A DNA stretch of 64,000 nt from a virus. Made by a program: the position numbers and the translations under genes. Under the pieces are notes generated by a model that made no database searches, had not been told where the DNA came from, and saw only the letters and a program-made list of their open reading frames with translations. Positions 11,739 to 62,549 of the stretch are shown here, one piece after another. Every line of letters starts with the position of its first letter. Within the stretch, counting starts at the first letter, position 1. Where the stretch lies: positions 1 through 64,000 of IMG/VR virus record IMGVR_UViG_3300023179_009503; one strand, given 5' to 3'.

Positions 11739-12431
11739 TTACACAGAATCAATGTCACTATATTCCTCTAGGAATTTTTCTTGACTATTAACAAAATTTG
11801 AATCATCAAAGCTCAGCAACCCCGGAGAAGAATGAACGACCCATATAGGGACAACCCCTATTTTAAGCTTTTTATTGTTAGCATCAATACAGCTAGCTAT
11901 GTCATAATGATGAAATCTATAATTTTCATTAAACTTCCAATCTTTATTTAAATAACATTCTGTTTTAACGCTGATAAATAGGCCATCTATAATTGCTACA
12001 CGAGATGGTGTTGGGCCAAAATTTGTCATGCCTATCTGATCTTTATTAACTTTATGTGCTACCGCTCCTCTTAGATTACCACCATGAAACCCTCCACACA
12101 TTAAATGCCAAAGAGCGGGTTGCTTGATAACAGGATTAAGGCCACCTGCTATACCTACTATATCAAACGTTTGATGCGCATTTTCAAGCTTGCTTACAAC
12201 ACCTAAATCATCAACATAAACATCATCATGAAGAAAAACAATATTATCAAATTCTTCTGCATGAAGCTTGAGAGTATTATTATATTTCTCGCTTAATCCA
12301 ATTTTATTATTTGTATCGTAAAAAATATCGAACTTCCAAGGTGTCGTACTTTTTATTCTTGAAAGTGACTTAAACGCGTACGTTTCTTCTGCTTCTTTAC
12401 ATTTAGTGCAAAAATAAAAAGCTGTTTTCAC
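11739..12431 (-). CDS. GT-A fold glycosyltransferase
   Basis: LSEKYN, VFLHDDV, IVGIAG, IDGLF, FHHYD motifs. Confidence 0.8.
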   Translation of the reverse strand: MKTAFYFCTKCKEAEETYAFKSLSRIKSTTPWKFDIFYDTNNKIGLSEKYNNTLKLHAEEFDNIVFLHDDVYVDDLGVVSKLENAHQTFDIVGIAGGLNPVIKQPALWHLMCGGFHGGNLRGAVAHKVNKDQIGMTNFGPTPSRVAIIDGLFISVKTECYLNKDWKFNENYRFHHYDIASCIDANNKKLKIGVVPIWVVHSSPGLLSFDDSNFVNSQEKFLEEYSDIDSV

Positions 12432-13111
12432 GGGGTAAAAAACGGTGAGTTGGTTTGAAATACGCCTACCGAAGTAATACCTTCTTTAGTTAGAAGATAC
12501 AAAACACCTTCCTCAAGAGCTACAAATTCCTGCTCTTTTAAAGAAGAAAAATCGTTTGACAAAAAATTTGCAAATACAGTACTCCCGGATCTAGCAAGAA
12601 ATATATTTGCAGATTTTTGATTATAAATCCATAAACCGAACGTACCTTTTAGCTTTGACAACGCTTTACAAATTCCTGCAACCTCATCATCTAAATCTTT
12701 AACATGCTGGTTAATAAATGGAGCTATAACCGAAGAATCCACCACATTATAAGCTTTCTTATCTTTAATTTGTTTCTTAAGTTCTTTATCGTTTGTTAAA
12801 ACACCGTTATGTGCGATTATCCAATCTTTGTATTGAAATGGATGTGATGTGTTAGGTGAAAATGCTCTTTTCTCAGAAGTAGGTGCTTGTGTATGGCCTA
12901 AAAAAGTATCAAAATCTGTTATACTCTTCTTTTTTTTGCCATACTCTATTACTAATTTATTAGATAAATTAGCGGTACCTGGTGTCTTTAAAATAGCATG
13001 AAGTTTCGATCCAATTAATAAACCTCCATAAGAAAACGTACCACGTTTCTTATTGCTCTTATAAAGCTTTACATAAGTTGTAAAGTCTTTAGAACCAAAT
13101 ATACCGCAAAT
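12428..13111 (-). CDS. Class II (Ntn) glutamine amidotransferase with AUU start
   Basis: Frame is open 366 nt beyond the track start: (M)CGIFGS...RG...GHTQAPT...HPF...AHNGVL...VDS; ATT at 13111 lies 8 nt after AGGAGG. Confidence 0.88.
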   Translation of the reverse strand: MCGIFGSKDFTTYVKLYKSNKKRGTFSYGGLLIGSKLHAILKTPGTANLSNKLVIEYGKKKKSITDFDTFLGHTQAPTSEKRAFSPNTSHPFQYKDWIIAHNGVLTNDKELKKQIKDKKAYNVVDSSVIAPFINQHVKDLDDEVAGICKALSKLKGTFGLWIYNQKSANIFLARSGSTVFANFLSNDFSSLKEQEFVALEEGVLYLLTKEGITSVGVFQTNSPFFTP

Positions 13112-14078: not shown

Positions 14079-14834
14079 TTACTTAATCATCTTACACTTA
14101 TATTTTTCCCAAGGTATTGAGATTTTATAAGGTAACGGGTCTATATAACCGGAATCTATAAAACCTTTTATTCTCAAAGAGCACGCTGTACACTCTCCAC
14201 AAGCAATTTGCTCGCCTTCATAACATGTCCATGTTTCTGCAAAATTAACACCTAATTTTACGCCTAATTTTACTATATCAGCCTTAGATTTTTCAATAAG
14301 CGGTGCTTGTACTGTAATTCTGTTTCTACGATTAAGAGCTGTGAGTTTATTTATTTGAGTTAAAAATTCCTTACTCCCATCCCAATATCCTGCAACACTA
14401 TCAGCTTGTGCTGCACCGTGAAAAATAGTGGAAGCTCCTACATTTTCAGCTATAGCCAGGCTAATACCAAGCATCATTGTATTTCTAAATGGAACGTAAT
14501 TTACTGTCTGTGGATCTCCCATTACATCTTTTGCTTTAGCAACAGGAATTTTAGTATTGAGAAGGGAAGAAATAGAGCAAATATCCTTAAAAAACGGTAA
14601 TGTAATTATTTTATGTATAACGTTCTTTTCACCAATTTTATTTGCAACAGCAGCTAACTGGCGTGTTGCATACACTAATTCCCTGCTATGCTTTTGTCCA
14701 TAACTAAAGCTAACAGCTATAACTTTGTCGTATCTATCTGCAGCAAGATGTAACAATACTGAGCTATCCATCCCCCCGCTAATAGGAACAACTACTTTAC
14801 TCGACTGGCTCTTCTTGTTCTTGGTCGTTGGCAT
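14079..14834 (-). CDS. queC: 7-cyano-7-deazaguanine synthase
   Basis: SGGMDS; YGQKH; YVPFRN; TWTCY...CGECTAC. Confidence 0.95.
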   Translation of the reverse strand: MPTTKNKKSQSSKVVVPISGGMDSSVLLHLAADRYDKVIAVSFSYGQKHSRELVYATRQLAAVANKIGEKNVIHKIITLPFFKDICSISSLLNTKIPVAKAKDVMGDPQTVNYVPFRNTMMLGISLAIAENVGASTIFHGAAQADSVAGYWDGSKEFLTQINKLTALNRRNRITVQAPLIEKSKADIVKLGVKLGVNFAETWTCYEGEQIACGECTACSLRIKGFIDSGYIDPLPYKISIPWEKYKCKMIK

Positions 14835-33235: not shown

Positions 33236-33712
33236 ATGGCTGATGTAACAATATCTGGATTAGATAATCTATCACCTGCAGGGTCTAGTTTTCTACCTAT
33301 TTCAACCGGTTCTTTAACAGGTAAAACAACTATAGCATCGCTGCCAGTAGATTATAATAGCATTACGAATAAGCCAAATATTCCTGTAGTAAATAATTCA
33401 CAGCTCGCAAAAGCATGGGTATGTTTTAACGGTCAGGGCTCTAACAGTACTAATCAGCTTATAAAAGCATCTTTTAATGTTACTAGTGTTTATAAAAACG
33501 GGAGTGGTAGTTATACTGTTAACTTCACCCCAGGTACATTCGCTAACGGTAATATAGTTGTTGTGGGCACTTTTATGCACGTTCCTAATGTATCGTGGGG
33601 AGGAGCAGCAGTTCCTAACGCAGAACCAACAGCAAGCTCAGCCACTATTTTTACCGGTGACCATGGTAAAGGTCTTGTTAATTCTGCACACGTGTCGGTA
33701 GTCTTTTTTTAA
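33236..33712 (+). CDS. Short fibre/decoration-type virion protein
   Basis: MADVTISGL N-module; AKAWVCFNG...SFNVTSV...G.YTVNF C-terminal domain seen in phage fibre tips. Confidence 0.7.
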   Translation: MADVTISGLDNLSPAGSSFLPISTGSLTGKTTIASLPVDYNSITNKPNIPVVNNSQLAKAWVCFNGQGSNSTNQLIKASFNVTSVYKNGSGSYTVNFTPGTFANGNIVVVGTFMHVPNVSWGGAAVPNAEPTASSATIFTGDHGKGLVNSAHVSVVFF

Positions 33713-34362
33713 ATAAGTTTTCTATTTTGCGCAAATTCAATGAACTTATAAAACTCGTTTCTAGAATTATCTTTATCATCCAAAAATGCTCCGGACATTC
33801 TCGCTGTACGCATTGTTGAATCATGTCTAATACCGCGGTTTGAGCAGCAAGTGTGCGCGGCTTCAATCATTACAGCTACACCCTTATTCTTTAAGCATAC
33901 CTCATCAATATACTTGTGTACTTGCATTGTAAGGTTCTCTTGAACCTGGGGGCGGCGAGCAAACCAATCAACAATTCTATTAAGCTTACTCAAGCCAATA
34001 ACCTTACCATCTTTAGAAGGAATATAAGCAACATGCGCAAATCCCATAAACGGGGCATGATGATGCGAACAAAGTGATGTTAATTTAATATTAGTTTGTG
34101 CTACAATACCGTCATACTTATCTACGTTATCAAAAGCTGTAACCTTAGGTGGGTTACTATAACAACCCCAAGCAAAATCTTCAACAAATGCCTTAGCGAC
34201 TCTATGCGGGGTATTATCGCTGTTAGGATCATTTCTCCAATCATATCCTAAAGCATCCATATAAGCTTCATATGCTTTGGCTGCTCTTTCTATTATTTGC
34301 TCTCTTTCTTCTTGAGTATGAGGATGATTATGATTCGCAAAAGCTAATTTCTTCTTAAACAT
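33709..34362 (-). CDS. folE: GTP cyclohydrolase I
   Basis: TPHRVAKA; SLCSHHHAPF; GLSKLNR; RRPQVQE; HTCCSNRG. Confidence 0.95.
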   Translation of the reverse strand: MFKKKLAFANHNHPHTQEEREQIIERAAKAYEAYMDALGYDWRNDPNSDNTPHRVAKAFVEDFAWGCYSNPPKVTAFDNVDKYDGIVAQTNIKLTSLCSHHHAPFMGFAHVAYIPSKDGKVIGLSKLNRIVDWFARRPQVQENLTMQVHKYIDEVCLKNKGVAVMIEAAHTCCSNRGIRHDSTMRTARMSGAFLDDKDNSRNEFYKFIEFAQNRKLI

Positions 34363-36483: not shown

Positions 36484-37158
36484 ATGATATACGAGAGTAC
36501 AAAGATTATTGAGTTAGGTTCTTGCGCATTTAGACAATGGAAAGCTAATCATAGCCATTGCAAGTTTATTCATGGTTATAGATTACAAGCTAAATTTTGG
36601 TTTGGATGTACAAATTTAGATGATAAAAATTGGGTAGTCGATTTCGGTGGTTTAGATGATTTAAAAAAAATACTACAAAAACAATTTGATCATACATTAT
36701 GTGTAGCTGCAGATGATCCTTTACTAGAAGGATTTAAAACTTTACATACTGCAGGTGGCTGTGATTTGAGAATAATGGAAGGCGGTGTTGGTATAGAAAA
36801 GACCGCTGAATGGTGTTTTAACACAGCTAATGCTTATTGTCAAACCATAACAAGTGGAAGATGTTGGGTTAATAAAGTAGAAGTTTGGGAACATGAAAAA
36901 AACTCTGCAATTGTTTCTTTTCAAAACTCACAAAACTCTGAATTACCTCCTCCTGTACACGCAGCTTTTCAACGCCCGGTAAATCCAATTCGAGAAACTA
37001 TTAATGAAATAGAAAAAGAAACAGGCGTACCTATTTCGAACGTTTTAAAACAGATTCCTGTAAGCAATACTCAAGCTGGTACAAGACCTGCGCCATTAAA
37101 GAACCCTAAATCCGAAGGATATTCGAATTTATTCGGCGGTACAAGCTGGGGTTCATGA
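36484..37158 (+). CDS. queD: 6-carboxytetrahydropterin synthase with C-terminal extension
   Basis: HCKFIHGY; WVVDFG; FDH; VEVWEHEKNSA. Confidence 0.92.
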   Translation: MIYESTKIIELGSCAFRQWKANHSHCKFIHGYRLQAKFWFGCTNLDDKNWVVDFGGLDDLKKILQKQFDHTLCVAADDPLLEGFKTLHTAGGCDLRIMEGGVGIEKTAEWCFNTANAYCQTITSGRCWVNKVEVWEHEKNSAIVSFQNSQNSELPPPVHAAFQRPVNPIRETINEIEKETGVPISNVLKQIPVSNTQAGTRPAPLKNPKSEGYSNLFGGTSWGS

Positions 37159-37334
37159 ATTTAGATAAAAATAACCCTGAAATAAGACAGCAATTATACG
37201 GGGGAGAAATTTCAGATTATTACAAAGAAGTTAAAAAAGAAAGCCAACCTTCATTAAGTCAAATTTACGATAGAATATTAAAGTCAGGCCTTAGGCTTAA
37301 TAGTAGCAATAACTCTGACAAGAAACTTAAGTAA
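37155..37334 (+). CDS. Possible 59-aa protein
   Basis: ATGA overlap with the queD stop; overlaps the phoH 3' end. Confidence 0.3.
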   Translation: MNLDKNNPEIRQQLYGGEISDYYKEVKKESQPSLSQIYDRILKSGLRLNSSNNSDKKLK

Positions 37335-38021
37335 CTTACTTCTTGTTATATCATCTTCAGTAAAATGAAAAACATTTATACCGTGATCTTGACTATCCTT
37401 TGAATCAAAACCATTCATTATATTTTTAAAGCCAGATTTTTGAATATCAGATTGTAAGGAATCGCCTATAACAAACATCTTACAATTTCTTCCATACCTA
37501 GTTAAAATAGTTACTAATTCACTATGCTCTAAATTTTGAGCTTCATCAACTATAACAACACTGTTTGCAAACGTCGCTCCTCTTAGAAAGTTAACAGGAG
37601 TACATTTAAGATATTCGTTCTCAAACAACATATTAGTAATTTGTTTACCTACCAACTCATCGCATTTCTCTATTAATGGAATACTCCAAGGCTTAAACTT
37701 GTCGTCTACTTCTCCAGGTAAACTACCTAGCTTTCTAGTAGCTGATTCTACTATACTTCTTATATAGATAATTTCATCTATCTTTTTCTCCTTAAGCATA
37801 GACAAAGCAACATAGGTTGCGCAGTAAGTTTTAGATGAACCTGCTGGGCCATCACAAAATACAATATGGGTATTATCTTCAAAAGCTTTATCGACAAAAG
37901 CTTTGTGGTGATCATTAAAATGAAATTTTTGCTCTACTTTAAAATTGAGAAAAATATCAGATTTTATGAGCGCTTTATCGTCTCGGGCAGCTTTTTTAAG
38001 CTGTCTATCCTTTTTCGACAT
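37284..38021 (-). CDS. phoH: PhoH-like ATPase
   Basis: GPAGSSKT; LGSLPG; FLRGATF; DEAQN; GDSLQSD. Confidence 0.92.
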   Translation of the reverse strand: MSKKDRQLKKAARDDKALIKSDIFLNFKVEQKFHFNDHHKAFVDKAFEDNTHIVFCDGPAGSSKTYCATYVALSMLKEKKIDEIIYIRSIVESATRKLGSLPGEVDDKFKPWSIPLIEKCDELVGKQITNMLFENEYLKCTPVNFLRGATFANSVVIVDEAQNLEHSELVTILTRYGRNCKMFVIGDSLQSDIQKSGFKNIMNGFDSKDSQDHGINVFHFTEDDITRSKLLKFLVRVIATIKPKA

Positions 38022-38073: not shown

Positions 38074-38817
38074 ATGAGTGATAAAACTATTTTTCTAAGT
38101 GACGATAAGATATTTTATACAATTGAGGGGGAAGGGGAGTATGTAGGTAAACCATCTGTTTTTATGAGACTTTCAATGTGTAATTTAACATGTAAGGGGT
38201 TTGCTTCAGCAGATTCGCCTAACGGTTGTGATAGTTTTATTAGCTGGTCTGTAAAAAATAAACTTTCATTTGATGAAGTTTTTGAATTTATGGCGCAACA
38301 TAGCTATAACTGCCATCTTAAAGACGGAGCTATATGGAAAATAACTGGTGGTGAACCTCTTATACAGCAAAAAAATCTTCTTGACTTAGTTGATCAATTT
38401 ATTTTTAGATTTAATTTTCTTCCTAAGATTGACTTTGAAACAAACGCAACAATTTTACCAGATCAACAATGGGTTGATTGGAAAGCTACATTCACTACAT
38501 CACCAAAACTTAGCAATAACGGTGACCCTGAAGAAAAGAGGTACAAGCCGGCAGTTTTAAAATGGCATGTTGATCATGGTTCAAGTTTTAAATTTGTTAT
38601 AAATGAAGAAAAAGATCTTGACGAAGTATATGAAAAGTATATTTGTCATAATAATATCTTAGTACCAAAAGATAGAGTATGGTTAATGCCGTGTTGCGGA
38701 AGTCGCTCCGAACATGTTGAAAAAGCAGCTATGGTTGCAGAGCTCTGTAAAAAACATCACTTTAATTTTAGTCCACGCTTACAGCTTGTTATTTGGGATA
38801 AAGCACTTAAAGTATAA
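38074..38817 (+). CDS. queE: 7-carboxy-7-deazaguanine synthase (radical SAM)
   Basis: FYTIEGEG; CNLTC...CDS; TGGEP; ETN; SPK; SPRLQ. Confidence 0.93.
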   Translation: MSDKTIFLSDDKIFYTIEGEGEYVGKPSVFMRLSMCNLTCKGFASADSPNGCDSFISWSVKNKLSFDEVFEFMAQHSYNCHLKDGAIWKITGGEPLIQQKNLLDLVDQFIFRFNFLPKIDFETNATILPDQQWVDWKATFTTSPKLSNNGDPEEKRYKPAVLKWHVDHGSSFKFVINEEKDLDEVYEKYICHNNILVPKDRVWLMPCCGSRSEHVEKAAMVAELCKKHHFNFSPRLQLVIWDKALKV

Positions 38818-38818
38818 T

Positions 38819-39556
38819 ATGAGAATCGCTATATCCGGAAGTGCATGTCAAGGTAAAACAACACTTGTAAAAGATATACTTAAAAATTGGCCAGTTTATA
38901 ACCGATCAAATGAATCTTACAGAAAGCTTCTTAAAAAAGAAGATATAAAAATTAATAAAGAGGTTAATAAAGACGGGCAGTGGAAAATTTTAAATTGTTT
39001 AATTGATGATATTCAACACACTGCAAAAGGTGATAAAGTAATTTTTGATAGATGCCCGCTAGATAATTTAATTTATTCTTTATGGGCAGAAGATAAAAAA
39101 AGTTCTGATATAGATAAAGAATTTATTGATAAGTGTATTCCGTTGGTACAGGAAAGCATGAAATCTATCGATATAGTTTTCTTTTTACCTATTACTAAAG
39201 TTGCTCCGGTTAAGGTTGAGGAAAAGACTAATAGAGAAATCGATACTCTTTTTATTCAAGAGATTGATAATATTTTTAAAGCAATAGAACACAATCTTAT
39301 GAGAAATGGGATATGCCCTTTTCTTTCAAAAGACGATAGACCGCCTATTATAGAAATATTTGGAAATCCAGAGCAAAGAATAGAAATGATTAAGTTTTAT
39401 CTTAACGAAAAAGGTGATCTTATTGAAGATGAAACGAGCGTTTTAGATCAAGAGAATATATCAGATATGGAAAGACTTTTAACTGCACAAAAGAGTGCAT
39501 TATTTGAGGAAAAACAAGAAGATCGTATACGCAAAAAAATCATTACAGGTAGATAA
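38819..39556 (+). CDS. P-loop nucleotide-kinase-like protein (AAA_28)
   Basis: ISGSACQGKTT; FDRCPLDNLIY; start placed at ATG 38819. Confidence 0.8.
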   Translation: MRIAISGSACQGKTTLVKDILKNWPVYNRSNESYRKLLKKEDIKINKEVNKDGQWKILNCLIDDIQHTAKGDKVIFDRCPLDNLIYSLWAEDKKSSDIDKEFIDKCIPLVQESMKSIDIVFFLPITKVAPVKVEEKTNREIDTLFIQEIDNIFKAIEHNLMRNGICPFLSKDDRPPIIEIFGNPEQRIEMIKFYLNEKGDLIEDETSVLDQENISDMERLLTAQKSALFEEKQEDRIRKKIITGR

Positions 39557-53453: not shown

Positions 53454-54977
53454 ATGGCTAAACAAATTCGTCCTACACAGGCTTACATTGATGAGTCACG
53501 CGCTAAGGTACTTCTCGAGAAGTGGGGTCCAGTTCTGGATTACTCTTCCGATAACGTCCGCGCTATCGAAGACGATCACACACGCTTAAACACCGCTATC
53601 CTTTTGGAAAACCAAGAGAAGTGGTGCTTTGAGGCTAGCAACACAGTCGGTGGAAACACTGGCGTATTCGGCGGCGCTATTAATAATGGCGCTTACGGTA
53701 ACCAGTTCCCTTCACAGAATGATAATGCTTACGCCCCAGGCGATGCGCGTCTACCGAAGATCCTCATCCCGATGATTCGCCGTACGTTCCCTGAGTTGAT
53801 CACTAACGAAATCGTTGGTGTTCAGCCCATGAGCGGTCCAGTAGGTCTTGCTTTTGCCCTCCGTTATAAGTACGAACCCACCAGCTTAGGTTACAATCCC
53901 GATGGCAAGATCGACGCAAGCAACTCTACAACAAAGTATGCTAGCTCGTTCTTACAGTCATTGTCGACAAACCCTGAGCTAGGGTATCAGTTCCTCGCTT
54001 CCGGCTTTACCGGAACGCAGCAGCCACAATTGTCGGGTAATTCCGACTTCACAATGCTAACACAAGATCAGGGTGTTGCTCAGCTACTCGGCCAGTTCGA
54101 GTTGAATGCAAACATTCCTCAGGTCGTTGTAAGCTTTGAGAAGACAGCAGTCGAGGCCGGCACACGCCGTCTCGCCGCTCGCTGGTCAGTTGAGCTCGAG
54201 CAGGATCTTAAGAACATGAACGGTATCGATATCGATACTGAGCTCACAAACGCTATGTCGTATGAGCTACAGGCCGAAATCGACCGTGAAATGATCATTC
54301 GCATGATCCAGACAGCACTCAATGCTGGCTACGGCACAGGTTATTCAATCTGGTCGCCCGTATCAGCAGACGGTCGCTGGCTCGTTGAACGTAATCGTGA
54401 CTTCTATCAGAGACTAATCGTCGAAGCTAATCGTATTGCAGTACGTAATCGCCGTGGTTCTGCCAACTTCGTTGTTGCAACACCTCGCGTTTGCGCTATC
54501 CTAGAAATGCTCCCTGAATTCCAGTGGGTACCAGTACAGGGTAATGTTAATACACAGCCCGTCGGTGTTGCAAAAGTAGGTTCGCTGGGTGGCAGGTTCA
54601 ACGTTTACCGTGATACTCGTACAGAAGCTCAGGCTGAAGCTTATAATACTGGTGGCATCCCTCCTGGTAATTTCCAGGGTCAGGGCTGGCCAACAGCTTA
54701 TGGCACCCAGAACTTCTCGCGTCAAGTACGCCTCGAGTATGCACTCCTTGGTTACAAGGGCCCGGAATTCTACGACACTGGTATCATCTATTGTCCGTAC
54801 ATCCCGGTAATGGTTCAGAGAACGATTGGTCCTAATGATTTTGCTCCTCGCGTTGGCTTACTAACACGTTATGGTGTAGTAGACAACATCTTTGGTGCTA
54901 ATCTTTACTACCACGTCATTATTCTCAAGAACCTCGGTACTCCGTTTGTTCCTGGAACACAGTCGGTCTACTTCTAA
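53454..54977 (+). CDS. gp23: Major capsid protein
   Basis: LLEKW.PVL; LLENQ; VGVQPMSGP; ELEQDLK; EIDRE; YCPYIP; TRYG. Confidence 0.97.
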   Translation: MAKQIRPTQAYIDESRAKVLLEKWGPVLDYSSDNVRAIEDDHTRLNTAILLENQEKWCFEASNTVGGNTGVFGGAINNGAYGNQFPSQNDNAYAPGDARLPKILIPMIRRTFPELITNEIVGVQPMSGPVGLAFALRYKYEPTSLGYNPDGKIDASNSTTKYASSFLQSLSTNPELGYQFLASGFTGTQQPQLSGNSDFTMLTQDQGVAQLLGQFELNANIPQVVVSFEKTAVEAGTRRLAARWSVELEQDLKNMNGIDIDTELTNAMSYELQAEIDREMIIRMIQTALNAGYGTGYSIWSPVSADGRWLVERNRDFYQRLIVEANRIAVRNRRGSANFVVATPRVCAILEMLPEFQWVPVQGNVNTQPVGVAKVGSLGGRFNVYRDTRTEAQAEAYNTGGIPPGNFQGQGWPTAYGTQNFSRQVRLEYALLGYKGPEFYDTGIIYCPYIPVMVQRTIGPNDFAPRVGLLTRYGVVDNIFGANLYYHVIILKNLGTPFVPGTQSVYF

Positions 54978-55479: not shown

Positions 55480-56394
55480 TTACTGCCTTACAGTCTTAGT
55501 AAAATACTTATATTCGTCTATTAGCGCTTTATCTAGAAGACTATAGTTACTAGCTCTTGTAGGGTTAATATCAATACCACCGCGCCTTACGTATAGACAG
55601 CTCACAACAAGCTCTTCAGGTTTAAACAGTCTAAATAAACGCATATAAATTGTTTCACAAATCTCCTCATGAAAATGACATTCATCTCTAAAAGAAACAA
55701 TATATTGTAAAAGAGATGTTTGATTAATCTCATACTTGCCTTTATAGTGAATATAAACATCGCCCCAATCAGGTTGAGAAGTAACTCTACAATTACTCTT
55801 TAATAAAGCAGAATGAAATCTTTGTACTTTAGCTTCAGGGATCTCTATTGCAGATAAAATAGAAGGATCCTCTACATATGATCTAGATTGTATCATAGTA
55901 ACATCAATATTATTTTCAAGTGTAGGATAATCTTTATTGCTAAATACCGGTGGATAATACAAATCGTCTGACACCGCAGCCGTAGATCTTACATATACTT
56001 TGACATCCGTCTCAAGTAAACTGGACAAATCCTTTGCAATAGTACTCTGTAATTCGTTTAATACTTGAATCATGTTACCTTTAAATACTTGCATATTAAA
56101 AGAATTCATGTATAGCTTAATAGACTTTGATTCTACAATATACTTGTTCTTAGCAGGATAAACTATTTTAGCAATTGCTGCAATAGGCATACCTTCCTGT
56201 GTTAAGCAAGAAACTTCATATGCATTCCAAATATCAAAACCACCGAAAGGTGCGTTTTCGTCTGTGATATCTAAATGCTTACGATTGTTGATTCTTGGCT
56301 CACGTACTAAAAGTGAAGGATCATAAGTCGACTTATACCCTGTTACTTTACCTAAATGCTTCGAAATGTTGCTATTGTCTAATACCTTGTTCAT
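55480..56394 (-). CDS. queF: NADPH-dependent preQ0 reductase (two-domain type)
   Basis: DIWNAYEVS; VESKSIKLY; LKSNCRVTSQPDWG; FHEEICE; YVRRGGIDINP. Confidence 0.95.
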   Translation of the reverse strand: MNKVLDNSNISKHLGKVTGYKSTYDPSLLVREPRINNRKHLDITDENAPFGGFDIWNAYEVSCLTQEGMPIAAIAKIVYPAKNKYIVESKSIKLYMNSFNMQVFKGNMIQVLNELQSTIAKDLSSLLETDVKVYVRSTAAVSDDLYYPPVFSNKDYPTLENNIDVTMIQSRSYVEDPSILSAIEIPEAKVQRFHSALLKSNCRVTSQPDWGDVYIHYKGKYEINQTSLLQYIVSFRDECHFHEEICETIYMRLFRLFKPEELVVSCLYVRRGGIDINPTRASNYSLLDKALIDEYKYFTKTVRQ

Positions 56395-56959
56395 ATAGTT
56401 TAATTTTAATCTGTTCTAAGCGTTCTTCAACTGTTCCTTTTAAAATAGTTACTCTATCTCTCCATGAAGGTTGATTCAAATAATGATCTTCGTATAAATC
56501 TATAATAGCATTCCTAAACTCAATATCAGTACTTCTCTCTCCGTCATCAACTAACTTAATTTCATGAGGATCAGGATAAAAAATAATATCATACTCATTA
56601 TAAAATCTGTACCAATAATGAACTGCTTGTTGCCATACTTGCTGAGTTACTAATTTCTTTTTAAAGAAATATTCTGTATAAACCAACCCGTCAAGCAGAC
56701 ATCTATCATGAACAACGCCTTTACACCAATCGCCCATACCCCTACATGTAAATAAATTCTTTAGTTCTTCGTTTATAATTAACAATTGAGTTATATCATT
56801 AGCACCTTCTTCATTAATAGGTATATTACATTCATCTCTTATTTTTCTTGTAACTTCATCAATATAAAAGAATTTATCAAAAATACCACCACTACTCTTC
56901 ATTAATTTAAGCAAAGTAGTCTTGCCCGAACATTGCGGCCCAGTAAACGTAATATTCAT
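56372..56959 (-). CDS. P-loop nucleotide-kinase-like protein (AAA_28)
   Basis: TGPQCSGKTT; DRCLLDGLVY; DDGERS; GTVEER. Confidence 0.8.
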   Translation of the reverse strand: MNITFTGPQCSGKTTLLKLMKSSGGIFDKFFYIDEVTRKIRDECNIPINEEGANDITQLLIINEELKNLFTCRGMGDWCKGVVHDRCLLDGLVYTEYFFKKKLVTQQVWQQAVHYWYRFYNEYDIIFYPDPHEIKLVDDGERSTDIEFRNAIIDLYEDHYLNQPSWRDRVTILKGTVEERLEQIKIKLYEQGIRQ

Positions 56960-56981
56960 TAAACTATTATATACTAAGAAC

Positions 56982-57329
56982 TTACTTACACCACTTTTTT
57001 CTTTTAACTATTTCTGCAATAATACAATAAACAGAAGTATCACTAAAAGCATCAAATATAGGCTCATTAGCTGACTCAAATGTCTTTTTACGTAGAACTA
57101 AATTAATTAGACGTTGTATTTTATCATTTAATCTTACCACTATAGCGGATATTGATGCAACAATATCTTCTTTTTTATGAAGATCTGAACCAAGACTTAT
57201 ATTATGCGGGCCGTAGTCAAATTGCTTTTTGCAAAATGTTTCATATTGCTCGCGTTGAATTTTTTTAAATTCTTCACAAGTCTCAGGATACGTGGCTTCA
57301 ACGCTCTTAATATAGTCTTCCGGATTCAC
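56982..57329 (-). CDS. Nucleotide-modification-associated domain 1 (Nmad1/DUF1599; all-alpha)
   Basis: KKQFDYG; RLNDKIQRL; E...DAFSD..VY. Confidence 0.75.
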   Translation of the reverse strand: MNPEDYIKSVEATYPETCEEFKKIQREQYETFCKKQFDYGPHNISLGSDLHKKEDIVASISAIVVRLNDKIQRLINLVLRKKTFESANEPIFDAFSDTSVYCIIAEIVKRKKWCK

Positions 57330-58297
57330 AATCTTACCCCGTAACCAACTTTACTTAAACTAAGAGTATTTAAATTGCAACCCCCCGCATAACTAATAGC
57401 GCTTTGCAAGTCCTGTGTAATTTCTAAAAGCTTTTCTTCGTAAGTAAAAGAATCGGTTTCCATAAGCTTCATTGTACCTTCAATGTTCTTTTTATCCATC
57501 TTATTGTGTATGCTAGCAGATCCGTAGTACTGTTTATATCGTCGTCCAGAAGCGTCTTTTACTACCGGTGCGGGGCTATCTGAACATGCAGCAAATATTG
57601 ACCCACACATAACTATCTTAGCTCCTGCAACTAAAGCTTTCGCTATATCACCATTACAGCGAACACCTCCATCCGCAATAATAGGTATATCAAAATTTGT
57701 TGCATCATTATTAGCACACTCCATAACACAACTAAACATTGGATAAGTAAATCCTGTTTTATCTTTTGTAGTACAAGCATAGCCGCCTCCTATACCAACC
57801 TTAACTGCATCAGCACCCGCCATAGCTAAATATTCTACCCCATTACGTGTTGCAACATTACCTGCAATTACTTTTGTGTTAGGCAAATTATCCTTAATTA
57901 TTTTAATTTGATCAGCGACTTTAGAGTGATGTCCGTGTGCGACATCTATAGTAATAAAATCCACTCTAAGCTTATGGTTACCTAAATTATTAATTAAAGC
58001 TTTATCTTTAAATTGTATTCCCACGCTAATTGAAACATTATTAAAACACGCCTCGTTTGCATCTCTGACAAATGCAAAAATATCATGATCAAACCTATGC
58101 ATAATGTAAAAATAATGCTTTGAATCTAACATTTGACAAGTATCAAAATCAACACAGCATTTCATATTCGCCGGTACCACTGGTAAGCGAAAGGTTTTAT
58201 CTAAAAAATTTACCTCCGTACTAATGTCTGCTCTTGTTCGAACAGAATTAAAGTTTGGCTTTAAAAAAACGTTTTCGTAATGTAAGGATATGTCCAT
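57326..58297 (-). CDS. guaC: GMP reductase
   Basis: VVPANM; YFYIMHRF; IDVAHGH; AGNV; KVGIGGGYACTT; IIADGG; YYGSAS; KKNIEG; no CBS domains. Confidence 0.85.
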   Translation of the reverse strand: MDISLHYENVFLKPNFNSVRTRADISTEVNFLDKTFRLPVVPANMKCCVDFDTCQMLDSKHYFYIMHRFDHDIFAFVRDANEACFNNVSISVGIQFKDKALINNLGNHKLRVDFITIDVAHGHHSKVADQIKIIKDNLPNTKVIAGNVATRNGVEYLAMAGADAVKVGIGGGYACTTKDKTGFTYPMFSCVMECANNDATNFDIPIIADGGVRCNGDIAKALVAGAKIVMCGSIFAACSDSPAPVVKDASGRRYKQYYGSASIHNKMDKKNIEGTMKLMETDSFTYEEKLLEITQDLQSAISYAGGCNLNTLSLSKVGYGVRL

Positions 58298-58866
58298 TAT
58301 TTTTCTAAGATTTTATAACCGGTAAATAAGCTTTTCCACAAATCAAATGCAACTTCATGTAACTTACTGTATACGTCTGGGAGTGTAAGATTTTCTATAC
58401 CTATACCCTGACTTAACAGAATTTCACCTGCATCTACCTCGGGTACTACTCTATGTATAACGCAACCTGCATGCTTATACCCTTCTAGGAACGCTCTCTC
58501 TTGCGGATTAAACCCTTTAAGAGAAGGGTACTTATCAATAAGACCGGGGTGTAGATTATAAATTTCGTATTTATTACAGATATCTTTAGGTATAATTCTC
58601 AGATAGCCGTGCAGAGTTATAACTGGATTACTAAATTGACTTAAAATATGCTCATAGCTTTCTACAGACGGTTTAGATTGCAACATATACCATATAGTCC
58701 TATTAAGTTTATGCTCCCTAAACGTGGTTGTAGTCAGCAAATCTTTATTAACACCATCTGTGGTCAAGCGGTTTGTAACAATTGCATCAGGGTAAATGCT
58801 AAGAGCATTACAAAGATTATTAATCTCTGTACCTGTTTGTGAAAAAAAAGCTATCCAAGGTCTCAT
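58297..58866 (-). CDS. PurN-like formyltransferase (candidate DpdN, preQ1 formyltransferase)
   Basis: FSQTGT; LHGYLRI; YNLHPG; GCVIHRV..EVDAGEI; adjacent to the DpdA-like gene. Confidence 0.8.
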   Translation of the reverse strand: MRPWIAFFSQTGTEINNLCNALSIYPDAIVTNRLTTDGVNKDLLTTTTFREHKLNRTIWYMLQSKPSVESYEHILSQFSNPVITLHGYLRIIPKDICNKYEIYNLHPGLIDKYPSLKGFNPQERAFLEGYKHAGCVIHRVVPEVDAGEILLSQGIGIENLTLPDVYSKLHEVAFDLWKSLFTGYKILEK

Positions 58867-59675
58867 CTTCTAATAATCTTTTTAAACATCGATGTATTAT
58901 ATTTGATTAATTCTAGCTGATCATCAGTAACTTGATGTGAAATTAGATCAGCTAACTTAGTAGTTGGCTTATTGCTTAAACCGTAATCAGCATCATATTT
59001 TAATCCGAATATTGCGCATACAATAGGATTACTAGTATCACAAGAGACAATATTGTGTATGTTTCTATCGACATAATAACGAAATTCTTTTGCTAAGGAG
59101 CAGCCTAAAAGATGATGAGGCTTGCTCCAATCCCATACATTACTATTTATTAAATCAGCTATAAAACGTTGCCGACCTGAACAATACCGCTCAAGATTTG
59201 TCTTACCGTACCCTGTAGTTTGATAATAACTAAAATCAAAACTAATAGCTATCATATCTGCGTTATCAGACATAAATTTGTAGCAATCAACCAAATCTTT
59301 CCAGGTTTTCCCTTGTACTGCGCCAATAGCTTTTGTATAAAAGCTCTGCTTTAATGAATCAGCTTTATCTTCAAAAGATCCCCAACTTTCTACGGTGCCG
59401 TCCGCATCTTCTAAAACATCCGGTACAATAAACATATTTGGTTTAATATCTAGCCCGGCTTTATAAAATTCTTCTGAATCAAACGCTTTGCCTAATTCAA
59501 ATATAGAGTTATCTAATAAAACCTCTCTATTATAAGTATCTCTTGCTGACTTAAAATAATTGTAATATTCCAGGTAATCTTTAAATAGATGAACTAATGC
59601 ATAGTCAAAATCGTTGTAACTTCTTGATTCATTTAGTATAGATATAGGCGATTCGTGCGAAACTTTCATTAGCAT
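58863..59675 (-). CDS. dpdA: Divergent TGT-fold guanine transglycosylase (DpdA-like, probably DpdA3-type)
   Basis: LLDNSIFE; VPDV; AVQG; HHLLG; SCDTS.P; no C-terminal zinc motif; full Que pathway present. Confidence 0.75.
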   Translation of the reverse strand: MLMKVSHESPISILNESRSYNDFDYALVHLFKDYLEYYNYFKSARDTYNREVLLDNSIFELGKAFDSEEFYKAGLDIKPNMFIVPDVLEDADGTVESWGSFEDKADSLKQSFYTKAIGAVQGKTWKDLVDCYKFMSDNADMIAISFDFSYYQTTGYGKTNLERYCSGRQRFIADLINSNVWDWSKPHHLLGCSLAKEFRYYVDRNIHNIVSCDTSNPIVCAIFGLKYDADYGLSNKPTTKLADLISHQVTDDQLELIKYNTSMFKKIIRR

Positions 59676-59711
59676 AATTATATTATAAATGTAAATAATA
59701 AGTAGATCAAC

Positions 59712-62549
59712 ATGAATTATCCCAAATACTATGGTAATTATCTAGGTATAGTCGTACAAAATAATGATCCACTTAAAAGAGGTAGGGTAAAAGTCTTTGT
59801 ACCGCATATTTCGCCGACTGTTTATAAAAAATGGAATGAAGTTTCTAAAGATAAAAAGTTTAGATTTATAGGTGCAAATGTTTGCAGTGATATAACAGAA
59901 ATTCTAGAAGATTTAAAATTAATTTTACCATGGGCTGAAATGGCTGCACCTTTAGCAGGTGAAAGCGCTAGCGGTAGATTTAATGCTTTTTTAAACGCTT
60001 CAACTATTAGTGATAGTAGTAATTTCGAAACTGCTTTTGTTAATTTAAGTTCTTGTGAACCAAATCAAGAAGAAGTGTCCGAAGATACACAAAATGTAGA
60101 TAATATAGGTGAGAAACCCGCTAACATATATGATATTTCGTATTTTAAATTAAAAGATGCATTTAGTAATCCTGCAGAAGTTAATGCCAATACGGCTAAT
60201 GAATTTTCTTTTTGCTATAAACCTGAAGCATATAGTAATTGTGCTAAGGGAGCATTTCCTCTGCTTAGAGTTGGTGCGCATGTATGGGTATTTTTTAATG
60301 ACGGAGATCCGCTCAAACCAGTAGTATTTGCCGCATCTTTTGGAAGTGAGGATTGGAAAGGCATACATGACATAATTGATGATGATGTTGGTAGTAATGA
60401 GCCTGATGAAGGTATGGATTACCCAGGGACATATGAAAATGTCGCTAAAACAGAAAATGAAAATGAAGATATTAATACACAGACTTATCGAAATAAGTAT
60501 GTCATCAATCAAAAAGGCGGTACAATAGCATTCGTTAACACAGATAACAAAGAAGTTTTAAAATTGACTCATTATTCAGGGTCTTTTAAAGAGTTTAATA
60601 ACAAAGTAAATATTGAATTAGCTACAGGTAACGATCAGAAATTAGTTTTAAGAAATCAATTTTTAACAGTAAGAGGAAGTAGAAGTGAGTTTACAGAGCT
60701 AGATTATGATAGTATAGTTCGAGGTGACTTTTATAAAAAAATAGGTCTGCTCAATACAGACGTACATGAACAATGGAAAGAAAAGGTTTCTCTCATTAAT
60801 CAGATTAAAACTTTATTTAATATTGATAGAGCTAGCGGAGGAAATTATGATGTATGTCCATCTTGTAACAAGCCTATAGATAAAAGATTTTTAATTAATT
60901 CTTATGTTGAAGAAGGTAATAACCAACAATTTTTGTTTGATATTATGAACGCTACATCTTCTTCCAGTAAAGCTAATAGCGCTTGGAGCAAAGGGCTTAC
61001 CCCTTCTGGGTTAGTTGAAAATATTAAAGTCGGGCCTAAAGGGCAACCAGTCTTAAAAGATCCTACAGAAACTATTGATGGTACAGCAGATGGCAGCTCT
61101 TTCTTTCCTCCCCCTGGTAATGCATTTGGCTCGACTTGTAAAACTTGTGGTGGATCAGGAAATAGTCCTAGTTCTGCGGGTGGCAGTTTTTCAAAAACAC
61201 CAGAAAAATCACAAATACCAGATTTAATTAAAGGAAAAATAGGAGAGCTTACAGAATTAGAAAAACAAATGGGGCTAGGTGGAAGTGAGATTATTGAAAT
61301 AACAAAAAATAAAATTGAAACTATTGGTATGACTATGAATGATTTTTCTCCTTTAAGAGTCGATCCTGAAGGTAGATTACTAATATCAGAAGTCGCAGTA
61401 TCTAAATACGGTGCATATACAGCAAGAAAACCCTCTCCATATTTTGAAAAAGTTCAAGTTGATGATCTACCTGGCGGCTCATACACATTAAACGTATGCA
61501 ACAAATATAATGTAATGGTTGGTGCAGGGGGACTGAACTTAAAAAGCTTTGGTATTGTTAATATTGCTGGTGCTATGACTAATATAACAGGCATGCAAGT
61601 TAATATAGGTAGTCAGCATGAAATTAATATTGATGGTGGACAGCGACTGAATTTAATTGCTGATACTGTAAGCGTCTCGCAAAGAGAAAATAAGCAAGTT
61701 GTTGTAGGTGGGTCGCTAGGTGTTACTCATAATGTTACGATTGAAGGCGGTCTTCATGTAGAAGGAGAGCTTTCCTGTAACCACTTAACTGTGCCTATGC
61801 AAGCACTAGAAACCGGAGAAGCAAATGTATATGCATCTCCAAATACAGATGCACAAAATAAAAACGGTTATGTTATAGGGTTTGCTGTTCCAATGTCTAA
61901 TTACGCCACAGTTAATGATGCAAAAAATAAAACGTATAAAGAAGGACAGCCTAAAGATACCGGTGAGCCGTATTTAGGTTTTACAGATGCATCTGTAGTC
62001 GCAGGTCGTATTAAGAAAAAGACAAAAATAGGATATCTCAAGAGAGACGAGGTTATAGGCTATATTGACCCTACTGATTATAATAAAATATTTGCACCGG
62101 ATGTAGGCGGCCCGTGTTATGGGAGCCAGCGCATACCGATTTACGCCACTAAAAATGTTAATACATTAGAGGATGTTCCTGTCTTAGCTTCTGATGTCGG
62201 CGAAGAAGCTGATGCTAAAGATATTCCGATTTATGGGTCCGGACCCGGTGATGATGCAGATCTTCGAAATGGTACGGTTCGAGCTAGTATTAAAGGATCT
62301 GATGCAGGAACAGGCGGAAAAGACCCAGAAAAAATGCCATTTATTGTATACGGCTCTGGCGCAGATCCGGATTCTATTTTAAGCTATCCTCATACACATA
62401 CATATCAAACACTTGCTGTTGATCTAAAGAAAGCGCAGTATGAAGTAAGACAAGAGGTAATCGATCGAGGCGACGCGCGCGGAATGGCTAAGCTGCCTAC
62501 AAATGCTCCTCAAGGTGATAACCGTAGTATTAATTCAATTGAAGGTTAG
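59712..62549 (+). CDS. gp5: Baseplate hub/central spike, gp5-like
   Basis: YLGIVVQNNDPLKRGRVKV OB-fold; WAE; VWVFF..GD...PV; HYSGSF.E; beta-helix repeats; HTH tip motif. Confidence 0.85.
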   Translation: MNYPKYYGNYLGIVVQNNDPLKRGRVKVFVPHISPTVYKKWNEVSKDKKFRFIGANVCSDITEILEDLKLILPWAEMAAPLAGESASGRFNAFLNASTISDSSNFETAFVNLSSCEPNQEEVSEDTQNVDNIGEKPANIYDISYFKLKDAFSNPAEVNANTANEFSFCYKPEAYSNCAKGAFPLLRVGAHVWVFFNDGDPLKPVVFAASFGSEDWKGIHDIIDDDVGSNEPDEGMDYPGTYENVAKTENENEDINTQTYRNKYVINQKGGTIAFVNTDNKEVLKLTHYSGSFKEFNNKVNIELATGNDQKLVLRNQFLTVRGSRSEFTELDYDSIVRGDFYKKIGLLNTDVHEQWKEKVSLINQIKTLFNIDRASGGNYDVCPSCNKPIDKRFLINSYVEEGNNQQFLFDIMNATSSSSKANSAWSKGLTPSGLVENIKVGPKGQPVLKDPTETIDGTADGSSFFPPPGNAFGSTCKTCGGSGNSPSSAGGSFSKTPEKSQIPDLIKGKIGELTELEKQMGLGGSEIIEITKNKIETIGMTMNDFSPLRVDPEGRLLISEVAVSKYGAYTARKPSPYFEKVQVDDLPGGSYTLNVCNKYNVMVGAGGLNLKSFGIVNIAGAMTNITGMQVNIGSQHEINIDGGQRLNLIADTVSVSQRENKQVVVGGSLGVTHNVTIEGGLHVEGELSCNHLTVPMQALETGEANVYASPNTDAQNKNGYVIGFAVPMSNYATVNDAKNKTYKEGQPKDTGEPYLGFTDASVVAGRIKKKTKIGYLKRDEVIGYIDPTDYNKIFAPDVGGPCYGSQRIPIYATKNVNTLEDVPVLASDVGEEADAKDIPIYGSGPGDDADLRNGTVRASIKGSDAGTGGKDPEKMPFIVYGSGADPDSILSYPHTHTYQTLAVDLKKAQYEVRQEVIDRGDARGMAKLPTNAPQGDNRSINSIEG

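Follow-up and report, generated by a model that had tools for sequence, protein, structure and literature searches.

A six-gene operon between the capsid and baseplate-hub genes

The DNA analyzed here (positions 1 to 64,000 of the IMG/VR virus record IMGVR_UViG_3300023179_009503, hereafter the window) carries a compact operon that, as judged by homology, is a DpdA3/DpdN/QueF guanine-replacement system and an enlarged form of the formyl-preQ1 (fdPreQ1) system of phage immuto_2-6A. The window is part of a 74.6-kb viral contig, estimated to be 35% complete, from a genome with 33% GC. The phage is uncultured and T4-like, with a gp23-type capsid gene at 53454-54977 and a baseplate-hub gene at 59712-62549, both on the plus strand. 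Six minus-strand open reading frames occupy positions 55480-59675 between them, with gene ends that either overlap or are separated by 22 nt (Table 1). A previous reading of the sequence without database searches, hereafter the sequence-only reading, had placed contiguous dpdA-like, PurN-like formyltransferase, guaC, Nmad1, kinase and queF genes in this region; all six were recovered there, Nmad1 being the weakest of the labels. The folE, queD and queC genes, which it had located elsewhere in the window, were identified in Pfam searches, and queE was identified by an iterated search. A megablast search with the operon against cultured phages gave no match.

Table 1. Predicted genes and promoter of the operon, and associated genes elsewhere in the window.
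Feature	Position	Strand	Basis
DpdA3-type 7-deazaguanine transglycosylase, 270 aa	58863..59675	-	45% identity to immuto/CP220 DpdA3; TGT fold
DpdN, PurN-like formyltransferase, 189 aa	58297..58866	-	PF00551 Formyl_trans_N, 60 bits
GMP reductase homolog GuaC, 323 aa, accessory	57326..58297	-	PF00478 IMPDH/GMPR, 192 bits
DUF1599/Nmad1-like four-helix protein, 115 aa, accessory	56982..57329	-	Pfam matches of orthologs, Atlas neighbors
Kinase 1, P-loop AAA_28/dNK/TMPK-like nucleoside or nucleotide kinase, 195 aa	56372..56959	-	AAA_28, 56 bits
Bimodular QueF, preQ0 reductase, 304 aa	55480..56394	-	QueF_N, 118 bits, and QueF, 80 bits
Sigma-70-like promoter, TTGATC-N17-TATAAT	59682..59710	-	Top-scoring site of the region
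Kinase 2, paralog of kinase 1	38819..39556	+	Kinase profile, E 4e-25; AAA_28, 37.7 bits
QueE-like radical SAM enzyme	38074..38817	+	Fer4_12, weak; iterated search to immuto QueE, 1e-74
PhoH-like ATPase, between QueD and QueE	37284..38021	-	
QueD	36484..37158	+	PF01242, 57 bits
FolE, GTP cyclohydrolase I	33709..34362	-	PF01227, 165 bits
QueC	14079..14834	-	PF06508, 192 bits
Class II glutamine amidotransferase near QueC	12428..13111	-	GATase_6, 41 bits

Complete replacement of guanine has been measured in immuto_2-6A (as fdPreQ1) and in Cellulophaga phage phiST (as 2'-deoxy-7-deazaguanosine, dDG), is cited for the Firehammervirus CP220 (as 2'-deoxy-7-amido-7-deazaguanosine, dADG), and has been assigned to DpdA3 (Cui 2023, PMC10516641). 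The window and immuto_2-6A have in common the gene order DpdA3-DpdN-kinase-QueF, the kinase family and a homologous small phosphoribosyltransferase (PRTase). The DpdN and QueF proteins of the window are 45% and 47% identical to those of immuto_2-6A, and its DpdA3 is 45% identical, over more than 90% of its length, both to the protein annotated as “DNA guanine transglycosylase” in that phage and to gp056 of CP220. The two systems differ in that GuaC and the DUF1599/Nmad1-like protein are located between DpdN and the kinase in the window, whereas immuto_2-6A has a PRA-PH gene upstream of DpdA3 instead. They also differ in their setting, which in the window is the backbone of a T4-like myovirus whose DNA chemistry is predicted from the genes alone. 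The homology to immuto_2-6A bears out the guanine-replacement system that had been proposed from the sequence, and the operon is predicted to put 7-(formylamino)methyl-7-deazaguanine in the place of all G in the phage DNA.

The catalytic stretch of DpdN, with the motifs N-x-H-P and D-x-G, aligns with glycinamide ribonucleotide (GAR) transformylases; in the literature, the activity of DpdN is a prediction (Cui 2023, PMC10516641). QueF scored 263 bits against the equivalog model TIGR03138, which is under the cut-off of 293 bits. The promoter ends 6 nt 5' of the ATG of DpdA3. A strict version of the promoter pattern was found in 56 of the 122 unique DpdA3 upstream regions, as compared to 56 of 2093 other open reading frame starts and 1 of 2440 shuffled sequences. 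A conserved sigma-70-type promoter in this position points to early transcription by the host polymerase, and the operon would thus be expressed early.

DpdA3, a small enzyme with a TGT fold

DpdA3 is tied to the tRNA-guanine transglycosylases (TGTs) by its predicted structure. The Pfam search with the window protein gave no TGT match, and sequence and profile searches against the PDB gave nothing significant, with the bacterial DNA-guanine transglycosylase 7ui4 at an E-value of only 1.1. The AlphaFold2 model, for which 70 homologs were used, has a pLDDT of 96.7 and aligns with the TGT from Z. mobilis over 231 of its 270 residues (Z 18.0, root-mean-square deviation 3.0 Å; Foldseek probability 1.00), while about 100 TGT residues are without a counterpart. 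Asp55 (LDNS), Asp86 (PD) and Asp213 (DTSNP) are invariant among the 70 homologs, and the QG motif (Gln121-Gly122) has a nearly invariant Gly122. We take Asp55, Asp86, Asp213 and Gln121 to be the equivalents of Asp102, Asp156, Asp280 and Gln203 in TGT, an assumption based on the order of the motifs rather than on a structural alignment at the level of residues. The last Asp, the putative nucleophile, is not followed by a CxCxxC zinc motif. Because of the TGT fold, the invariant Asp residues, the lack of about 100 residues and the lack of a zinc motif, DpdA3 appears to be a stripped-down TGT barrel with the residues for base exchange in place. The family is acidic, with a median pI of 5.5, from which nothing was concluded.

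Fusion proteins provide additional information about the partners of DpdA3. Fusions were identified to QueF (P0122-P0124), to DpdN (P0132, P0188) and to a GIY-YIG endonuclease; the last was found in a search among longer DpdA3 homologs, which recovered QueF and GIY-YIG fusions and no fusion to a kinase. Weak matches (hhalign E 0.0018 at a probability of 15%, Atlas score 0.79-0.82) suggest that DpdA3 may be fused to a DUF1599-like domain in P0230, which is treated as a lead. The fusions link DpdA3 to enzymes that make and tailor the base, and do not decide the sugar substrate. Two other metagenomic homologs carry an additional domain, which is C-terminal, of about 160 aa and GNAT-like by eye in P0138, and N-terminal, of 317 aa and without a family assignment in P0155. 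These domains could be a hint that DNA contains further acyl derivatives of preQ1.

The DpdA3 family is abundant in nature. In total, 3258 homologs were identified at E ≤ 1e-3 in a collection clustered at 90%, and 1455 representatives at 50% clustering; DpdA3 was confirmed in more than 570 IMG/VR stretches. We retrieved 160 loci and scored the neighbors in the 113 unique ones that extend at least 3 kb downstream of DpdA3; these loci belong to related phages, and the counts do not represent independent events. DpdA3 is followed by QueF in 107 of the 113 loci, by the kinase in 101 and by DpdN in 86, as compared to 37 for the 115-aa Nmad1-like protein and 13 for GuaC. The full six-gene order of the window was found in 13 loci, while 20 have the shortest form, DpdA3-kinase-QueF, and in 9 a DpdA3-DpdN-QueF operon lacks the kinase. 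In an immuto-like sub-clade (L091, L093, L095, L101, L113, L118, L121, L138, L139, L151), the order is DpdA3-DpdN-QueF-QueC, which leaves no space for a kinase between DpdN and QueF. Gene co-occurrence had been suggested as a check of the sequence-only reading; it confirms the kinase and QueF as regular partners of DpdA3 and speaks against Nmad1 and GuaC as core parts.

Mononucleotide enzymes in the company of DpdA3

Kinase 1 has invariant G-x-x-G-K-[TS], D-R-C and D-D-G-x-R motifs, and its profile matches the ribosylnicotinamide kinase domain of NadR, dNK and TMPK with E-values from 1.6e-4 to 3.2e-4. By these matches it belongs to the nucleoside/nucleotide monophosphate kinase fold and is a putative nucleoside or nucleotide kinase. 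The profile also matches gp203 of immuto_2-6A (1e-33) and gp057 of CP220 (3e-38), both of which are encoded just downstream of DpdA3. A tblastn search of 50,697 cultured-phage records with the kinase matched only Campylobacter phages that carry DpdA3. Neither DpdA3 nor the kinase 1 family was found in NCTC12673, which is from a sister genus and contains deoxyinosine, or in phage 9g, which has DpdA1. The AAA_28 family is also absent from the phiST lineage, which has a different P-loop protein, AAA_18. The inclusion of a kinase in the proposed system is thus upheld by its presence in most of the loci, in immuto_2-6A and in CP220, and by a P-loop protein of another family in the phiST-type phages.

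The window encodes a second, paralogous kinase that is 27% identical to kinase 1. It begins 2 nt after the stop codon of QueE, to which it is, judging from this spacing, translationally coupled. The order QueD-PhoH-QueE-kinase 2 is the same in one complete relative (G006), where kinase 2 adjoins QueE, while the two genes are about 1.9 kb apart in another genome (G001). CP220 likewise has a second copy of the kinase, located beside its dUTPase gene.

A Gpt-like PRTase of 151 aa is encoded on the same contig outside the window (71018-71413, minus strand; L170:1483-1938), and is 28% identical to the PRTase in the immuto_2-6A cluster. Genes with a PRTase domain were identified in six of the eight DpdA3 genomes checked, the two without being CP220 and G005. 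In 31 loci, the distance between DpdA3 and a homolog of the immuto_2-6A PRTase was about 10 kb or less.

Enzymes that act on nucleoside triphosphates (NTPs) flank DpdA3 in other lineages. In phi19:2, which belongs to the phiST species (Cbastvirus ST) and has a protein that matches the DpdA3 family profile at E 1e-25, a MazG NTP pyrophosphohydrolase and the AAA_18 protein are encoded immediately upstream. Compared to the window, this phage has MazG in place of Nmad1 and lacks QueF, DpdN and GuaC. In CP220, DpdA3 is followed by the same kinase family as in the window, while QueF, DpdN, GuaC and the PRTase are missing; the protein encoded directly upstream of DpdA3, gp055 (L003:7868-8899), joins an HD phosphohydrolase and an AAA_33 kinase-like domain in one chain. 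The gene upstream of DpdA3 in immuto_2-6A encodes a PRA-PH pyrophosphohydrolase, and another 13 loci have a PRA-PH or MazG homolog close to DpdA3, in most cases upstream of it. If Nmad1 is counted, there are four phage lineages in which DpdA3 has both an NTP-pyrophosphatase-type or HD enzyme and a P-loop kinase at its side. In two complete genomes of related phages, genes for MazG, PRA-PH, HD and Nmad1 are all missing, so a dedicated dGTPase is not a general feature of these phages. As a single control, the DpdA1 cluster of phage 9g contains no kinase, PRTase, GMP reductase or NTP pyrophosphatase in its deposited annotation.

The remaining two genes of the operon, GuaC and Nmad1, are accessory. 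GuaC is an IMPDH/GMPR barrel without the CBS insert. Its best solved relative is the GMP reductase 1YPF (full length, E 4e-69), with which it shares the catalytic Cys-Thr-Thr loop and the Glu-Gly motifs. The score against the NCBIfam GMP reductase model NF003966 was 319.5 bits, under the cut-off of 344 bits, and that against TIGR01306 was 280, as compared to a cut-off of 466. GuaC is absent from immuto_2-6A, CP220 and phi19:2, which represent the three phage lineages for which complete replacement is known, and it is therefore not needed for complete replacement. GuaC and Nmad1, which had been described as working parts that drain the canonical guanine nucleotides, are consequently better regarded as optional extras, in line with their presence in 13 and 37 of the loci. 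A role of GuaC in draining the G pool is possible, as is the recycling of freed guanine toward adenine nucleotides in this AT-rich genome. By analogy with the clusters for deazapurine antibiotics, it could also carry out the reductive deamination of a deazapurine mononucleotide.

No Pfam match was obtained for the 115-aa protein of the window, PF07659 (DUF1599) included, a family that Pfam names “Nucleotide modification associated domain 1”. Ten of 13 orthologs gave sub-threshold matches to PF07659, the best at E 0.0023. Of its 30 Atlas neighbors, 25 were DUF1599 clusters (score 0.96), and tblastn searches recovered crAss-like “DUF1599” proteins at E-values of about 3e-3. The structural model consists of four helices, for which dCTPase and YpjD appeared only in non-significant Foldseek rows and VIA-align returned generic helical matches with Z below 8. 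Comparison with hhalign to the PRA-PH of immuto_2-6A and the MazG of phi19:2 gave nothing. For the suggestion that Nmad1 is a dGTP pyrophosphatase, this leaves the analogous position of the MazG, PRA-PH and HD genes, by which such a role is possible.

We also considered, and rate at slightly below an even chance, that GuaC and Nmad1 are general purine-balancing auxiliaries of an AT-rich phage that came to lie in the operon by chance, with no specific tie to the modification. This agrees with the low count for GuaC, which is located about 4 kb upstream in a few other loci and far from the operon in G001, and with the presence of GMP reductases in many phages that lack DpdA3, such as phage G, Cr30 and XacN1. 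In Microcystis phage Mel-JY01 (PP395634.1 78230-83368), which has no match to DpdA3, a GMP-reductase/IMPDH-like gene is separated by about 3.5 kb from the gene for a protein that shares 40% identity with the 115-aa protein in its C-terminal part. Against a chance placement, GuaC, where it occurs in the operon, is inserted by overlapping stop and start codons and always together with the Nmad1-like protein, and the analogous place is held by MazG, PRA-PH or HD genes in other lineages. A far more specific role for GuaC in the phages that have it inside the operon, which we think very improbable, is that it strips the 2-amino group from a 7-deazaguanine mononucleotide delivered by DpdA3 or the PRTase, as suggested by analogy with the antibiotic clusters. 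The virion DNA would then contain a 7-substituted 7-deazahypoxanthine, a base so far unreported in DNA, the presence of which would prove a nucleotide-level pathway.

Base exchange before or after replication

Two routes have been put forward by which phages could achieve complete replacement of guanine with 7-deazaguanine. A modified-dGTP route was proposed for Campylobacter phages in 2019, as recorded by Hutinet 2019, and a post-replicative swap was asserted in 2023, after the discovery of DpdA3. Our literature search found no paper that links DpdA with dGMP or with a kinase. We put at about an even chance the alternative that DpdA3 exchanges the base on free nucleotides before the DNA is copied. 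From the gene identities, folds, linkage and promoter, all of which were observed, we infer every substrate assignment beyond that of QueF. DpdN would formylate the 7-deazaguanine either before or after its attachment. DpdA3, as a minimal TGT-fold enzyme with an Asp nucleophile, would take free deoxyguanosine or one of its nucleotides, most simply dGMP, and exchange the guanine for the 7-deazaguanine. Both of the paralogous kinases of the AAA_28/dNK-like type would then phosphorylate the product toward the triphosphate, which the phage polymerase would incorporate. An NTP-pyrophosphatase-type enzyme, where present (here Nmad1), would turn dGTP back to dGMP, while the Gpt-like PRTase and GuaC would dispose of or recycle the released guanine.

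In the T4 pathway for hydroxymethyl-dCMP, the dCTPase gp56, the dCMP hydroxymethylase gp42 and the dNMP kinase gp1 act together. The logic proposed here would be similar, in that a canonical dNTP is converted to the dNMP, the monophosphate is modified and a phage kinase phosphorylates it again, with Nmad1 taking the part of the T4 dCTPase. The enzyme families are unrelated, and the modifying step in the window would be a putative base exchange by a TGT-fold enzyme. A scheme of this kind fits because the gene company of DpdA3 consists entirely of mononucleotide enzymes.

Several other results favor exchange before replication. The kinase family accompanies DpdA3 in most of the loci, is located beside it in immuto_2-6A and CP220, and was matched by tblastn among cultured phages only in Campylobacter phages with DpdA3, and a second, paralogous kinase is coupled to QueE. 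Non-orthologous NTP-phosphohydrolases are found at DpdA3 across lineages, and a Gpt-like PRTase is present on the contig, in the immuto_2-6A cluster and in the majority of the DpdA3 genomes checked. The DpdA1 cluster of phage 9g has no annotated companions of these types. The lack of the zinc motif and of about 100 TGT residues in DpdA3, and the conserved early-type promoter in front of it, argue in the same direction. To our knowledge, all other known complete base replacements are pre-replicative. Finally, a modification of DNA by DpdA3 could not be demonstrated in E. coli, and an ADG nucleoside was seen in the cytoplasm of CP220-infected cells (Cui 2023, PMC10516641).

A number of observations weigh against exchange on free nucleotides. 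None of our computations reveals the substrate of DpdA3, and all characterized DpdA and TGT enzymes act on polynucleotides; insertion by DpdA3 was concluded to be post-replicative in a study in which the word “kinase” does not occur (Cui 2023, PMC10516641). The absence of AAA_28 from the phiST lineage, the nine loci with no kinase in the operon, the two complete relatives with no NTP-phosphohydrolase gene of the types searched for and the relatedness of the 113 loci also count on this side. The kinases, the PRTase and GuaC would fit just as well into a guanine/GTP salvage pathway that feeds FolE. The nucleotide-pool interpretation of the sequence-only reading is supported with regard to the company of mononucleotide enzymes, which comprises two kinases, a PRTase, a GMP reductase and an NTP-pyrophosphatase-like protein. 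Its placement of DpdA3 on a free nucleotide finds no such support in our computations, and the literature has the enzyme act on DNA after replication.

In the published model, DpdA3 would be a highly efficient DNA transglycosylase by which all G is exchanged once the DNA has been replicated, while the kinases, PRTase, GuaC and NTP-pyrophosphatases only manage the supply, with the freed guanine converted to GMP and on to GTP for FolE, and the excess to IMP. This model, the view stated by its authors (Cui 2023, PMC10516641), agrees with the TGT fold of DpdA3, whose nearest characterized relatives act on nucleic acids, and a PRTase followed by a kinase is exactly the salvage path from guanine to GTP. 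The search among longer homologs, which recovered no DpdA3-kinase fusion, is also in its favor; the fusions to QueF or DpdN fit any model in which the free base is the input of DpdA3. We nevertheless consider it rather unlikely. For salvage, a dNTP pyrophosphatase or HD enzyme next to DpdA3 would not be required, and GuaC would counteract the supply of GTP. In phage 9g, about a quarter of the G is modified, on the DNA, by DpdA1, whose cluster has no such companions annotated. We know of no precedent for a complete post-replicative replacement on both strands. The action of DpdA3 on DNA in E. coli was not demonstrated despite attempts (Cui 2023, PMC10516641).

The biosynthesis of toyocamycin and tubercidin provides a model for a second alternative. 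These clusters combine a FolE-QueD-QueE core with a PRTase (ToyH/TubE) and a GMP-reductase homolog (ToyE/TubD) that act at the mononucleotide level, but they yield secreted nucleoside antibiotics, have no TGT-family enzyme and make adenine-type products (PMC6112128). TubE was shown to load 7-carboxy-7-deazaguanine (CDG) onto phosphoribosyl pyrophosphate (PRPP) in tubercidin synthesis, TubD performs the reductive deamination of an intermediate that resembles GMP, and the toyocamycin clusters have the TubD homolog ToyE as a signature tailoring enzyme (PMC6112128). By analogy, the Gpt-like PRTase could join 7-deazaguanine to PRPP, with the kinases and ribonucleotide reductase providing the dNTP, and DpdA3 could merely mop up residual G in the DNA or have another role. 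The TubE precedent, the two kinases and the presence of PRTase genes in the immuto_2-6A cluster and most of the DpdA3 genomes speak for such a route, which we judge improbable: CP220 replaces all of its G and, like G005, has no gene with a PRTase domain, DpdA3 rather than the PRTase is common to all complete-replacement phages, and most T4-like loci have the PRTase gene at a distance of 7-9 kb or in another place.

The company of DpdA3, with two dedicated kinases, NTP-phosphohydrolases of four families, a Gpt-like PRTase and, in some phages, a GMP reductase, makes the route testable with a few purified proteins. If exchange takes place on a mononucleotide, DpdA3 would be the first example of a TGT-fold enzyme whose sugar substrate is a small molecule, and would offer an enzymatic route to 7-deaza-dGTP analogs.

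Two other genes of the window are located close to the genes for preQ0 synthesis. The class II glutamine amidotransferase, about 1 kb from QueC, has the N-terminal sequence Cys-Gly-Ile-Phe-Gly with no ATG, GTG or TTG codon in front of it, and may supply ammonia to QueC. The PhoH-like ATPase occupies the same position between QueD and QueE in G006 and G001, and the PhoH gene of CP220 is located a few kb from its DpdA3 gene.

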